Shown one piece after another: positions 1,075 through 62,364 of a stretch of 64,000 nt of DNA. Both the position numbers and the translations under genes were made by a program. The DNA lies in contig OZ024751.1 of NCBI GenBank assembly GCA_964016885.1, positions 20,026,001-20,090,000 of the forward strand, written 5' to 3'. Every line of letters begins with the position of its first letter. Position 1 is the first letter of the stretch. The notes under the pieces are model-generated. The model saw only the letters and a program-made list of their open reading frames with translations, was not told the origin of the DNA and ran no database searches. This stretch comes from Eledone cirrhosa. Taxonomy: Eukaryota.

Positions 1075-1250
1075 TATAGGTGATTCGGTGAATTACTGGT
1101 GGTTCTACCAATATCAGAACTCGATGCACAGGCAGAGTGTATATATTAAGAAAATACGATAAAGTTTCGTGTACGTGTTTTTATTGATTATCGACCTGTT
1201 ACCTATGTTCAGGCCGATAATCAATAAAAACATGTAAACGAATTTTATAG
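1075..1250 (-). mobile_element. Fold-back mini-element in (TA)n, probable PLE-like terminal fragment
   Basis: Imperfect inverted arms 1166-1198/1210-1242 plus a one-sided tail carrying GCATCGAGTTCT (minus) about 45 nt from the TA tract. No clean HHR core. Confidence 0.45.
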
Positions 1251-1464
1251 GTTTTTTTGGTTTTTTTGCCTTATACATTTCGTGTATATATATATATATA
1301 GAGAGAGAGAGAGAAAGAGGGGGTGGGGTGGGGGGAGAGAAGGAGAGATACACATACACATACACATGGCTGATTAAATGCTCATGTGCTTTCATCCTGT
1401 AAAATAACTTCTATTTCTCTTCTTACTTTCGTCTATGATTCTATTTCTTCTATCTCCTTTTCTT

Positions 1465-1500
1465 TGTTCCGATGAAGGACTAACGACCAAAACATAAAGA
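1465..1500 (+). ncRNA. Degenerate minimal hammerhead ribozyme (family A)
   Basis: CCGATGA-AGGACTAACGACC-AAAACATA-AAGA; homologous with its flanks to the better copies at 49258 and 62190. GAAA is mutated to AAAA. Confidence 0.45.
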
Positions 1501-1594
1501 TTATTTTCCTACAACACCAAGAATTAACTAATATATCTCGTCATTGTATTGTATTGTATTTTTCTTTGTTGTCTTTTCGCAAGTTTGCCTTTCA

Positions 1595-1840
1595 TCCTTC
1601 GGAAATCGATAAACTAAAGTACCAGCTAAATACTCAGATCGATATAATCGACTTTCCCTTTCCCTAAATTGATTGATTTGTGCCAATGCTGGACAGAAAG
1701 AATGGTTTTATCTACGATTAAGGACGGTAGGTTAGCAGCATCGGTTGCGCGTCGAACAAAAAGGCTTTGTCGTATTTACGGTTTTCTATCCCTTTCGAGG
1801 TTGACAAAACAAAGTACCAGTCTAATACTGGGGTCGATTC
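1595..1840 (+). mobile_element. Two decayed SINE family 1 fragments
   Basis: TTTGCCTTTCATCCTTCGG...AAAGTACCAG blocks matching the copy at 2908. Confidence 0.6.
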
Positions 1841-2907
1841 TTTCTCTATATCTCTTTTTCACTTCCTCTCACTCACTTTTTATCCTTCTATGGAAGAAAT
1901 CTGTAGTATTCAGACATGGAGAGGGATGAGCTCCTCCACTTTAAAAATGCTCTAGAAACGCCTTATGCCCCTACGACTTCATCAGGAGGTACGGGACCAT
2001 ACCATCCCATACCATACGTCCTGAGATCAAGTCCCACCGAGTTCAAGTCTGCCTTTCATACCTCCCTAGTCGACCTATCTATCTACCTACCTACCGCCCT
2101 ATCCATCCATCCATCCATTCATCCATCCATCCACCCATCTATTCATCCATCTATCTATTTACCTATATATCTGTCTTTCTGTCTATCTATCCATCTAAAT
2201 AAAGAAATATATCTATCCATCTATATTTGCTCTATCTATGGAAAAGCAAAACTGACGAAAATGATAACAGCCACCAAGATTGCAAGAACAGCAGTTAAAA
2301 ATAACAATGAAAATGAAAGCAAACAAGATGTTAAGCTCTTTAGTAAATGACATGCAGTGAATTAAAAATGGAGCTGAATTGAACTGAGCTGAGCTGAGCT
2401 GTGCAGAGATTTTATAACGTAGTTAAAGAGAAATGTATACTGCGTGATTTAAGGCGAGATAAGAAGGGAAGCTTTTAAACTAAACGCAACAGAAATCACG
2501 TCACAGAGTTGAGACAGTAGATTAAGATTGGATAAACACATACACTCACACACACGTACATACATACATACACATACACTCAATACACACGTACATACAT
2601 ACTCTTGCATGCACATAAACACACACATGTATATGTGTATATATATACACACACAATATAGGTGATTATACACACACACACATATATATATATATATACA
2701 CACATATGAGATTATATATATATATATATATATACACACACAATATGTGATTTTATATGTGTGTGTGTGTGTGTGTGTGTGTGTGTGTGTGTGTGTGTGT
2801 GTGTGTGTGTGTGTGTGTGTGTGTGTGTGTGTGTGTGTGTGTGTGTGTGATTTGATTGGTATCTGCTATACTGCGGCTACAACTTCGATTTATAACCATT
2901 ATATATA

Positions 2908-3090
2908 TGCGGTGGATTGGCAGTATCGGTAGAGGGTCGGACGCCATGCTTTCCAGCATAGTTACGTCCCTTGACGATCTGAGTTCAAATCCCGCCGAGG
3001 TTGACTTTGCCTTTCATCCTTACGGGGTCGATAAAATAAAGTACCAGTAATGCACTGGGTAATTGCTGGCCTTGTGCCTAAAGTAGAAAC
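2908..3090 (+). mobile_element. tRNA-derived SINE family 1, near full length
   Basis: A-box-like TGGCAGTATCGG, B-box GAGTTCAAATCCC, core GCCTTTCATCCTTACGGGGTCGATAAAATAAAGTACCAG, tail GCCTTGTGCCTAAAGTAGAAAC; more than 10 copies in the window. Confidence 0.85.
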
Positions 3091-3114
3091 AGTTATATAT
3101 ATATATACATATAT

Positions 3115-58500: not shown

Positions 58501-60067
58501 ACGTATATATATGTATATATATACGTATATATATATATATATATATACATATATACGTATATATATATATGCACTGTATATATATATATATATATATATA
58601 TATATATATATATATATATATATATATATATACATATATACGTATATATATATATGCACTGTATATATATATATATATATATATATATATATATATATAT
58701 ATACTATATATTCACTATATATAGATGCACTCTATATATACATGTTCATATATATACTGTATATGCACTATAAATGTACATTATATATAAATATATTATA
58801 TGCACTATATATATATACATATATATATATTATATATGCACTATATATATGTACATATATTCATATATACCTATATATATTATATATGCACTATATATAC
58901 ATATATACCTATATATGCACTATATATATAAGTAAATATATTTATATATCATATATGCACTATATATATATATATGTATATATATTTATATATCATATAT
59001 GCACTATATATTTATATATATATATATGTACGTAATTGTGTGTCTATTTGTGTGTGTGTCTATGTGTGTGTGAACGTGTGTGTTGGTATATAGTTTAAGA
59101 TACAGTAGTGTTTCAAAAATACAAACATTAAGTGAATGAGTACTCAATATTGGTGGGTCGCATGCAGACACACACATATATACACATACAGATACACACA
59201 CACACACACACACATACAGATACATACACTCACACACATATGCATGTATATATACACATACAGATATACACCCACCCAAATACACACACACACACATATA
59301 TACACATACAGATATACACACACCCAAATATATACACAGACACACACATATATACACATACAGATTTACACACACCCAAATACACACACACACACAGATA
59401 TACACACACCCAAACACACACACACACAGATATACACACACACCCAAACACACACACACATATACACAGATATATACACACACACAGATATACATACATA
59501 CATGAACAAACACAAATACATCATTCTGTTATTTGTTTTTCTTTATTTCATCCACAACACTCACACATACTGACACACCCACACATAATGGCGTTCACAC
59601 ACATATATACACACTACTCTCCTGGGATATGAAATGTTATCAATTATTACACACACACACACACGCACACACACACAGACACACACACATAAACACATAC
59701 ATACACACATACATACAAGCACATATACATACAAATACAAACACACATATATACACACACACGCGCATATATATATATATATATATATATATATATATTT
59801 ACACACACATATATATATATATATACACACATATATATATACACACACACATATTTATTTATTTACCCACACACACACACACATATATATATACATACAC
59901 ACATACACACATATTCACACACACACACACATACACACATACACACACACACATATATATATATACACACACACGCATACACATATATATATATACACAC
60001 ACACATATATATATACATACACACACACACACACACATATATATATATATATATATATATATATATA

Positions 60068-60635
60068 TACACCCACATATATATACACCCACATATATAT
60101 AAACCCACACATATATATATATATATATATACACCCACATATATATACACCCACATATATATAATCCCACACATATATATATATATATATACACCCACAT
60201 ATATATAAACCCACACATATATATATATATACACCCACATATATATAAACCCACACATATATATATATATATATACACACCCACATATATATACACCCAC
60301 ATATATATAATCCCACACATATATATATATATATATACACCCACATATATATAGACCCACACACATATATATATATATATACACACCCACATATATATAC
60401 ACCCACACACATATATAAACCCACACATATATATATACACCCACATATATATACACCTACACACATATATAAACCCACACATATATATATATATACACCC
60501 ACATATATATATAAACCCACACATATATATATATATATACACCCACATATATATACACCCACACACATATATAAACCCACACATATATATATATATACAC
60601 CCACATATATATACACCCACACACACATATATACA
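60068..60635 (+). repeat. CACCCACA(TA)n minisatellite
   Basis: Direct read. Confidence 0.85.
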
Positions 60636-60774
60636 CCCTACTCTACTGAGATATGAAATGCTATCAGTTATTGCTAATTGCTCAACTTTTATCTCTTATC
60701 AAATTGTTGATCAGTTTTCTTTTTTATTTCTCTTCATTGAAATCAGACTTCATTTCTGCTGAGTTGGTTTGTAG

Positions 60775-61335
60775 ATGGTGGGGGTGGTGGTTGTGTGGTG
60801 GTGGTGGTGGTGGGGGTGGGGGTGGGGGTGTTGGTGGTGGTGGTGGTGGTGGTGGTGGTAGTGGTGATGGTGGTGTTAGTGGTGGTTGTGATGGGGGATG
60901 GTTCAGTAGTTGTCGTGGTAGTAGTGGTGATGGTGGTGGTGGTGGTGGTGGTGGTGGTGGTGGTAGTGTTGGTGGTGGTGGTTGTGATGGGGGATGGTTC
61001 AGTAGTTGTGGTGGTAGTAGTGGTGATGGTGGTAGTGGTGGTGGTGGTGTTGGTGGTGGTGGTGGTGGAGGTGGAGGTGGAGGTGGTAGTGTTGGTGGTG
61101 GTGGTGGTTGTGATGGGGGATGGTTCACTAGTTGTGGTGGTAGTGGTGGTAGTAGTGGTGGTGGTGGTTGTGGTGGTGGTGGTGGTGGTGGTGGTGGTGG
61201 TGATGTTGGTGGTGACTGTGGTGGTTATGACGGCAGTGACTGTGGCGGTGCTGGGGGAGGTAAATTCAGTGGTTATGATGGTAGTGGTGGTGGTGTTAGA
61301 GGTAGAGGTGGTGGTGGTGGTGGTGGTGGTAATGA
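60775..61335 (+). repeat. (GGT)n-derived repeat with 3 higher-order units
   Basis: GGTTGTGATGGGGGATGGTTCA occurs 3 times. Confidence 0.85.
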
Positions 61336-62189
61336 TGGTACTCGACGGCAATGATGATAGAGCAGTCGATAAGCGGGTACGTGAGGGTAGCTGGGTGACT
61401 GGTTAAGGTGTAGGGTGTTGAGGAAGTTATTAGAGATTACAACAGAACAAGATTGGTGGTCCAATATATAACAGGACCACCCAAAGAGAACAACACTGTT
61501 ATATTGTGTCATAAGTTCATATTATGTAACATACGAGCAAATATTTTGACTATGTTCATGTCAACGTATATATATATATATATATATATATATATATATA
61601 TGCATGTATGTATGTAAAAGGCAAATAGAAATAACACTGAACACACACACACACACATATATATATATATATATATATATATATATATGCATATATATAT
61701 ATATATATGCATATACATATATATATATATGCATATACATATATATACATATACATATATATATGCATATATATATACACATATATATAAATATATATAC
61801 ATATATATACATATACATATATATACATATATATCTATATATATACATATATATACATATACATATATACACATATACATACACATACACATACACATAC
61901 ATATACATATATATATACATATACATACATATATATACATATATATACATATATATATATACATATACATACATATACATATATATACATATATATATAT
62001 AATTATACACATCTGTATGTATATATTTGTGTGCTTGTATGTATGTATGCGTGTGTGCGTGTGTGTGTTTACAAGCGATGTGTTTGCTCTCAGGAAGTTG
62101 TGAGCTCTATATATGCGAAAATCAAACAGAAAATAACACAGCAAAACGACACAGTATAATAGGTTAACGTCTGATATAGCAGAAAAAGT

Positions 62190-62227
62190 ATCTAAACATT
62201 TCGGGCGTTAGTCCTTCATCAGAAGAT
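62190..62227 (-). ncRNA. Minimal hammerhead (family A)
   Basis: ATCTT-CTGATGA-AGGACTAACGCCC-GAAATGTTTAGAT. Confidence 0.55.
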
Positions 62228-62364
62228 AGAATAAGAAATTTAAAAAAAAGAAATAGAAATGCAGAGGATGGCGAGAAGAGGAAGAAACGAAAAAAAATAA
62301 CAAAAAACAATTACTACCAGCCTGGAATATGCTTGACCATGGCTGACCTAGGGTCACAAAACAA

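Follow-up and report, generated by a model that had tools for sequence, protein, structure and literature searches.

The Hydra clade of Penelope-like elements (PLEs) with a C-terminal endonuclease (EN+) combines RWK-type, DKT and CxCX5C motifs with canonical hammerhead ribozymes and insertion into (TA)n (Craig et al., 2021, PMC8557442). It includes the Octopus bimaculoides family Hydra-1_Obim, which has a (TA)n target and is tabulated there as 'no pLTR' (pLTR, pseudo-long terminal repeat). How PLEs integrate and what role their hammerheads play are open questions (PMC8557442, PMC11167929). Here we analyze a 64,000-nucleotide stretch of the Eledone cirrhosa genome (GenBank assembly GCA_964016885.1, contig OZ024751.1, positions 20,026,001 to 20,090,000, forward strand; hereafter the window), in which short islands with hammerhead motifs lie among (TA)n tracts and share these Hydra traits. 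Judged from the motifs and coding frames of their longer copies, the islands are very probably the cut-short ends of PLEs, mostly of the Hydra clade and in some cases Neptune-type.

Several further systems invite comparison. The islands resemble inverted-pLTR insertions of EN+ PLEs, which have head-to-head arms, 5' truncation and a tail on one end (PMC3846280; Craig et al., 2021, Figure 2 legend). The tail described there is optional and 30-40 bp long, whereas here it measures ~65-165 bp and every pair has exactly one (28 of 28), carried by the longer arm in some pairs and by the shorter in others. As in the minimal hammerheads of metazoan PLEs (Cervera and de la Pena, 2014, PMC4209133), we find palindromic stems III, many families per genome, a U3:A8 variant, a predominance of single motifs left by truncated PLEs, and pairs on opposite strands separated by 100-700 bp. 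PAc, a Poseidon PLE of Anolis, likewise has an AT-rich target, two internal starts bounding a tail and an adjacent hammerhead (Frangieh et al., 2024, PMC11167929). Its reverse transcription begins in an AC-rich stem-loop that has no target homology, in contrast to the mostly short TA-rich homology just before an RCTC...GAGY hairpin seen here. Non-LTR retrozymes are also short, non-coding, PLE-related and equipped with type I hammerheads (PMC7229834; 10.64898/2026.07.22.740005), but they are head-to-tail tandem repeats that yield circular RNA, whereas the pieces described here are single or head-to-head in (TA)n; no head-to-tail tandem units with a hammerhead each occur in the window. The literature already contains Hydra PLEs with their hammerheads, the targeting of (TA)n and insertions with an inverted arm plus tail. 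New are the scale, the strict one-tail rule and the start-site hairpin, of which the latter two may appear in Repbase, subscription journals or preprint supplements.

Hammerhead motifs and their coding parents

A first-pass annotation of the window, made from the letters alone, had listed 26 type I hammerhead sites in about 10 unrelated families and had taken them for short non-autonomous or truncated PLE-type elements targeted to (TA)n. Our type I descriptor (version 3) demands the core, a stem II of at least 3 pairs, a self-complementary stem III, NUH and a stem I of at least 4 pairs. It detects 16 motifs in the window compared with a mean of 0.06 (maximum 1) in 50 shuffles that leave microsatellites in place; the three successive descriptor versions gave 11, 14 and 16 motifs against 0.04-0.07 in such shuffles. 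All 16 coincide with listed sites (3152, 7780, 16844, 18104, 18321, 19957, 21951, 26293, 41799, 42930, 43744, 48229, 48428, 49258, 50582 and 52570). With reading by eye added to the descriptor, both core boxes are intact at 23 of the 26 sites, including seven outside the version 3 set that have a weakened stem or an over-long stem II (13213, 13743, 14459, 41087, 41237, 42806 and 62190). Two further sites, 1465 and 35108, are core-mutated copies from families with intact cores elsewhere, while the motif at 49458, covered by none of the 40 other matches listed in a similarity search, is unsupported. The hammerheads of the first-pass annotation are therefore real and its list holds except at 49458. 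Its family number agrees with the ~11 that we count, although six listed islands form a single superfamily at 70% identity. The list also omits a U3:A8-variant hammerhead at ~42100 and the fold-back layout of about half of the islands.

In an Rfam scan, no family reaches the gathering score in the window and, in E-value mode, the best 150 of 1052 matches are all microRNA-type models on repeats or microsatellites. The minimal hammerheads of the window escape Rfam detection but are found by the custom minimal descriptor. The window has a GC content of 31% and contains 397 (TA)5+ tracts totalling 9,284 bp; such a tract lies within 150 bp of 19 of the 26 listed sites, compared with 52% of random non-repeat window positions.

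Longer copies of six families, which cover 18 of the 26 listed motifs, contain reverse transcriptase (RT) and GIY-YIG frames. Full or near-full elements with window hammerheads in their pLTR were found for family A (L119-L124), for A2, B, C and E (L173-L176, L179-L184, L186-L188), for F, and at two of three long loci of family H. The open frames, counted from stop to stop, reach 821 amino acids in A2, 758 in B and 832 in C. The exact 44-mer of the 48229/48428 hammerhead (family A) has 654 occurrences, many of them arranged as divergent pairs separated by 116 to 4,580 bp, and the wide pairs surround RT and GIY-YIG coding sequence. One locus, L121, shows the whole plan: an inverted arm, a pLTR with hammerhead and tail, the start of the open reading frame (ORF), RT, endonuclease, 3' region and a second pLTR. 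In tandem copies (L121, L176, L180, L188, L020, L069) the hammerhead lies within the pLTR, 5' of the ORF start. The units here are ~4 kb long, in contrast to under 3 kb for the Hydra units described in PMC8557442. Stump subfamilies have matching coding subfamilies, and the families without a known coding parent (D, G, 13213, 14459 and 35108) have relatives elsewhere in the genome.

Clades were assigned by motifs and tblastn, with the Hydra criteria of section 11 of PMC8557442, rather than by a tree with named references. All three full frames (A2, B, C) carry the Hydra motifs RW[R/T], DKT and a CxCX5C linker, together with CxxC and CxH close to the end of the endonuclease, with RWR or RWT in place of RWK, and lack CX2-5CxxC; CxCX5C is also found in pieces of families A and F. 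At E<=1e-20, 794 public proteins match the family C frame, many of them with PF26215. Nematis was considered as the clade of the main families and rejected, given the Hydra motifs of the frames. The Nematis/Neptune features are absent from the B, C and A2 frames and present in those of L069 and L072, where Pfam matches both RVT_1 and GIY-YIG. The corresponding islands at 42059 and 19481 are provisionally termed Neptune-type on these motifs. Together with an island at 4356, they are the three islands absent from the first-pass annotation that match the ends of Neptune-type frames. At L121:5400-5950, a Hydra ORF start is joined via a short duplication to a Neptune-type endonuclease end (96% to L072), a possible template switch between clades.

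Some results weigh against a PLE origin of every island. Pfam finds no RT match in the Hydra frames and at best a weak GIY-YIG (E 0.019). Eight of the 26 sites (families D and G; 13213, 14459, 35108 and 49458) have no coding partner shown, none being present in 8 loci of family D or in the 9-kb loci L231 and L232 of the 35108 family. The window itself holds no PLE coding remnant detectable with 11 PLE queries, and a set of 240 proteins gave only three low-complexity zinc-finger matches on a tandem repeat. For the six families with linked RT and GIY-YIG frames, the PLE origin proposed earlier is nevertheless confirmed, and the idea of stand-alone mini-elements is contradicted by the longer coding copies of those 18 motifs. 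Truncation fits inverted pairs that range from 77 bp to 4 kb, into coding elements, with varying junctions, and a non-autonomous status is not needed. It is very improbable that the fold-backs are miniature inverted-repeat transposable element (MITE)-like DNA transposons or that the motifs arose by chance in AT-rich DNA. Terminal inverted repeats at TA-rich sites are superficially similar, but the excess over shuffles, the zero counts of reversed-pattern controls, the asymmetric tails, the variable centres and the RT and GIY-YIG partners refute this for the six families with linked frames; 49458 might still be such a case.

The islands of the window are as follows.

48128-48532, both strands: family A fold-back stump; tail 48128-48188; hammerheads minus 48227-48295 and plus 48426-48494; (TA)n flanks; coding partners L119-L124
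17975-18427, both strands: family A second-subfamily fold-back stump; hammerheads minus 18102-18171 and plus 18319-18388; tail at left
16750-16950, plus: family A2 single arm; hammerhead 16842-16916; ends at the short site; coding partners L186-L188
19870-20161, plus: family A relative, arm with tail; hammerhead 19953-20021
26250-26420, minus: family A relative, short end; hammerhead 26291-26355
52490-52680, plus: family A relative, short end; hammerhead 52568-52636
7765-7960, both strands: family B fold-back stump; complete hammerhead minus 7778-7834; plus arm keeps its core, cut inside stem I; tail 7894-7960; coding partners L173-L176
21871-22063, both strands: family B fold-back stump; hammerhead minus 21949-22005; 98% identity and same junction as 7765-7960
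50549-50645, plus: family B stump, most of one arm absent; hammerhead 50582-50628
3116-3450, both strands: family C older fold-back; hammerhead minus 3149-3203; plus arm lacks the core and carries the tail; coding partners L179-L183
13575-13807, minus: family C relative; full core ~13743-13788; stem I down to 3 pairs
41690-42002, plus: family E single arm with tail; hammerhead 41799-41853; coding partner L184
42691-43071, both strands: family F nest; fold-back 42730-42906 with core at 42811; second copy with hammerhead plus 42930-42999; coding partners L020, L230
40886-41447, both strands: family H fold-back; arms of 212 bp, 98.6%; two full cores, stem II ~125 nt; tail at left
49200-49380, minus: family D, old single arm; minimal hammerhead 49258-49293; no coding partner found
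62100-62300, minus: family D; full core ~62190-62226; first stem I pair lost
1400-1560, plus: family D core-mutated remnant; motif ~1465
43744-43825, minus: family G hammerhead, long stem II; relatives in L157, L174
14410-14605, minus: island with full core ~14459-14500; stem I imperfect; 93% relative in L185
13203-13330, plus: island with full core ~13213-13260; stem II weak; relatives in L033, L039, L192, L206
35090-35200, plus: core-mutated copy (C3, G5 changed); 4 of 4 aligned relatives intact
49458-49515, plus: doubtful motif; core boxes present, stems poor
42059-42278, plus: putative Neptune-type PLE pLTR 3' end with U3:A8-variant hammerhead; absent from the first-pass annotation
19481-19685, both strands: putative Neptune-type PLE, perfect 85-bp fold-back cut 3' of the hammerhead; relatives L072, L073, L076, L082, L083; absent from the first-pass annotation
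12864-13073, both strands: family M fold-back, only the 3' half of a hammerhead-like motif kept; absent from the first-pass annotation
13363-13460, 18663-18835, 37827-37956, 54045-54290: further family M copies

Hydra-type RT and endonuclease pieces sit between the arms of family H in L228 and L229; an exact 33-mer of this family occurs 429 times, with a pair spacing peak at 265-269 bp. The island at 42059-42278 matches both ends of the 938-aa RT and GIY-YIG frame of L069 as well as five further loci. It is inserted directly behind the family E copy. Its two fixed ends both fall at TATA, and the Hydra hairpin is absent. Family M, present in 10 of 40 random loci, combines a stem III of 6 bp with a tail of 80 bp that contains the RCTC...GAGY hairpin; no copy with a 5' core box or coding parent was seen. 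The core-mutated copy at 35090-35200 lies in a partial direct repeat (34733-34827 = 35273-35365, within 34733-35365), and intact copies of its family, with a 5-bp stem III, should fold as monomers. Other TA-flanked fold-backs without a full hammerhead lie at 26763-27275, 4356-4490, 1151-1256 and 53683-53845; of these, 4356-4490 matches ends of the Neptune-type frame in L087 and 53683-53845 is a family B relative.

Anatomy of the insertions and probable two-site priming

Inverted repeats were mapped by masked self-BLAST, an unmasked search being swamped by (TA)n. Many window islands proved to be fold-backs in which one arm is flush with (TA)n and the other continues into an unpaired tail of ~40-140 bp; (TA)n adjoins 10 of the 12 window inverted repeats. 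In family A, two sites ~100 and ~190 nt past the core account for the ends of 64 of 67 arms (37 at the short site, 27 at the long one), with (TA)n directly after each, and two dominant ends are present in all six families tested. An inverted pair is found in 28 of the 30 loci examined, and in all 28 a short arm is combined with a tailed one. It is the tail-less arm that extends further 5' in 17 pairs and the tailed arm in 9, with 2 ties. A minor allele is shared by both arms in nine cases and confined to one arm in a single case. Pair spacing extends from 77 to 3989 bp, continuously up to coding elements, and the head-to-head junction varies between copies. In families B and H the junctions gather at the 5' edge of stem I, in A 60-105 nt before the core. 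Ends of Hydra families lie 2-9 nt before the RCTC...GAGY hairpin, whose two forms covary. This hairpin stands out clearly at the short end in families A, A2, B, C and F and at the long end in A and C. At most ends, 2-6 nt of TA-rich sequence are identical to the target.

A tailed arm cannot be copied from a tail-less complementary DNA (cDNA), nor a longer arm from a shorter one, so neither arm can be a plain snap-back of the sense cDNA. Simple snap-back of the first cDNA was rejected on the 17/9/2 split in which arm extends further 5', a distribution that could not result if one arm were copied from the sense cDNA. The shared minor alleles indicate that both arms derive from one source. The islands are probably 5'-truncated (TA)n insertion products made by the full-length PLEs' own RT and GIY-YIG endonuclease with two-site priming, a step that we regard, taken by itself, as reasonably likely. 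The endonuclease would nick both strands of a palindromic TA tract, generating two 3' primers, and each 3' end would serve as primer at one of the two internal sites where reverse transcription starts, usually aided by the TA-rich pairing in front of the repeated hairpin. Both cDNAs would be copied from one source and stop early, often near the probable RNA 5' end when copying starts in the 5' pLTR. After head-to-head joining, the stretch between the start sites would be left as a one-sided tail. With the hammerhead no more than ~60-250 nt away from the start sites, most insertions would leave one or two motifs, and the genomic copies would probably be passengers. A Poseidon PLE behaves comparably in vitro: it nicks and extends both strands of AT-rich DNA, two internal reverse transcription starts bound the tail, the protein is a predicted dimer, and the hammerhead is protein-assisted and dispensable for insertion (PMC11167929).

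Several observations count against this scheme. Of the 28 pairs, six had been selected for resemblance to the window hairpin; without them the one-tail rule holds in 22 of 22 pairs, and the further-5' arm is tail-less in 12, tailed in 9 and tied in 1. Eight of the nine shared alleles represent one site. At the long end of A2, B and F the hairpin is imperfect, and the Neptune-type family K lacks it; the short end of family B has no TA match. Junctions are strongly modal (39-52 bp in B, 265-269 bp in H), and two window B copies share one junction, as unit copying would also give.

The shared alleles and the preferred junction places would also be accounted for if the inverted arm arose from self-priming of an antisense element transcript, as proposed by Arkhipova et al. 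(2013, PMC3846280), with the tail set later as the endonuclease resolves the intermediate; the islands would still be PLE stumps. This is unlikely: antisense self-priming alone leaves unexplained the two exact ends per family, each before a repeated sense-strand hairpin, and the strict one-tail rule, and the in vitro work, on sense RNA, describes two start sites on both strands (PMC11167929).

The sharp junction modes in B and H, the many family A 5' ends 60-105 nt before the core and the coding-partner gap of families D and 35108 could instead indicate that many islands are non-autonomous SINE- or retrozyme-like units, that is, short pLTR-only RNAs transcribed from promoter-keeping stumps and mobilized in trans. 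Animal retrozymes are described as derived from pLTRs (10.64898/2026.07.22.740005). Junctions nevertheless vary by copy, the spacing extends into coding sequence, tandem hammerhead-monomer arrays are absent among the window islands, and the stump subfamilies are matched by coding subfamilies, making such an origin distinctly unlikely. Movement of the family A hairpin as a unit, suggested by 40 of 40 matches near full length, was dropped, since these matches had been selected for similarity and have different junctions. The notion that family A has a fixed 5' end was likewise discarded: it is only a mode, and low complexity accounts for the BLAST breaks at -287 and -1188. About 90 nt before the family A core, where many 5' ends fall, L014, L020, L079 and L121 carry a short initiator-like motif that is kept across divergent family A subfamilies; an Inr-like motif has been noted in a pLTR (PMC3846280).

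Two more complex arrangements were observed. An inverted tail piece recurs across the TA tract (window 20161-20262 and 26420-26484; L020:7330-7500), a second kind of mirror at the tailed end. L018:1300-4200 is a ~2.9-kb palindrome in which a number of different stumps with their TA tracts, and a family M hairpin at the centre, are all mirrored, as though an entire nested block had undergone inverted duplication.

Ribozyme structure and genome-wide abundance

In a set of 13 of the 17 family A matches (two sister arms, L074 and L079 excluded), 98.3% of the cells are paired; the covariation score is equalled in 0 of 500 shuffles, and slid controls are lower. Double changes affect five of six stem II pairs, two of four stem III pairs and 7 of 18 pairs overall, in line with the within-family covariation anticipated by the first-pass annotation. 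The hammerhead structure is under selection in the parent elements. Stem III of family C occurs as two Watson-Crick palindromes and a wobble intermediate, with no mismatched form seen by eye among 100 listed of 4,614 matches. Stem III is fully self-complementary in 11 of the 16 descriptor matches and partly so in 5. Two points temper this picture: the family A statistic ignores kinship, and RNAcofold gives a dimeric hammerhead as the best fold for only two of five motifs. For the fold-back 48189-48532, nearly the entire read-through RNA is predicted to pair into a duplex (163 pairs, -244 kcal/mol) that would preclude the ribozyme fold. By analogy, the parent RNA would require a dimer or the element's protein for cleavage; minimal PLE hammerheads are described as cleaving poorly, as dimers (PMC4209133). 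The genomic motifs may be silent passengers.

To place the window in the genome, forty 10-kb stretches were picked by coordinate alone (399.4 kb, with approximate weighting across contigs). They contain 33 motifs compared with 0-2 in 10 shuffles, corresponding to 83 per Mb (bootstrap 45-125). For a genome size of 3.0 Gb, the total is likely ~250,000 hammerheads (bootstrap 135,000-375,000). A (TA)5+ tract lies within 350 bp of 32 of the 33 motifs, against 40% expected, which together with the window figures bears out the proposed association with and targeting of (TA)n. Motif number climbs with TA tract number across the stretches (rho 0.38, p 0.016, n=40).

Exact whole-genome pattern matches, for which both core boxes but not all stems are demanded, number 68,514 for family A, 15,792 for B (including arms cut inside stem I), 4,956 for E, 4,614 for C, 2,588 for F and 69 for D. 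Their sum of 96,533 is a lower bound for the genome, and reversed-pattern controls gave 0 in every case. The very high abundance anticipated earlier is thus confirmed, but the density in the window (250 per Mb) is ~3-fold above that of the genome sample and so overstates it. The Hydra clade as described comprises ~23 families, with no sign of such numbers in the relevant section of PMC8557442, in contrast to at least six families here, the largest of which is family A. The top counts given in the pertinent part of PMC4209133 are ~9,000 (Xenopus tropicalis) and 4,000 (coelacanth) against at least 96,533 here, a rough comparison given that the descriptors differ. Over 6,000 hammerheads in Acropora and up to 120,000 retrozymes in the 28-Gb axolotl genome are also cited (PMC7229834; 10.64898/2026.07.22.740005), and the giant squid has 235 Rfam hammerheads (PMC6962438). 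A literature search, covering sources other than subscription journals, Repbase and 2026 preprint supplements, found no paper on hammerhead abundance in octopus; two papers discuss octopus Penelope elements, with the word 'ribozyme' absent from their main text (PMC13282606, PMC8967140).

The window contains other repeats. A SINE-like (short interspersed element-like) repeat of 150-190 bp is present in about a dozen copies, many of them ending at (TA)n. A 408-bp element, which is a different microsatellite-targeted family, occurs in three copies at 97% identity, each starting at (TACA)n. Three minisatellite arrays complete the list.

2902-3091, 5217-5800, 11444-11672, 13927-14110, 30473-30648, 33925-34118, 43254-43464, 44540-44930, 52241-52490: SINE-like repeat copies
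15752-16161, 54320-54728, 54761-55168: 408-bp element
32864-33748: minisatellite, period 30 bp
17146-17763: minisatellite, period 59 bp
30732-31583: minisatellite, period 28 bp

A possible link to RNA editing, and predictions on PLE integration

Octopus has an exceptionally high share of long near-perfect double-stranded RNA (dsRNA) and one of the two strongest hyper-editing signals (PMC5625713). It was left out of the repeat-class analysis of that study, in which Penelope is the heavily edited LINE-type repeat in lizard. In our genome sample, (TA)n adjoins 34 of 44 non-microsatellite inverted repeats (arms >=40 bp, >=88%), which hold 9,830 of 13,010 arm bases; some of these repeats are nested and a part only was assigned to families. 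A link between PLE stumps and octopus editing is a hypothesis. We advance only tentatively, as a combination that may well fail in one of its parts, the view that this genome is the richest known hammerhead store (~80 per Mb), that the stumps are the main source of octopus dsRNA and A-to-I hyper-editing, and that they follow a fixed rule by which an RT dimer, docked on two copies of a small hairpin, uses both strands of a cleaved TA tract as primers.

The hammerhead count is above any published figure found in the literature search. Tens of thousands of natural insertion products per family, alongside intact coding parents, allow exact predictions on PLE integration. The predicted rule is that of two start sites, one per target strand, set by the repeated hairpin, and predictions on these start sites are testable in the PAc in vitro system.

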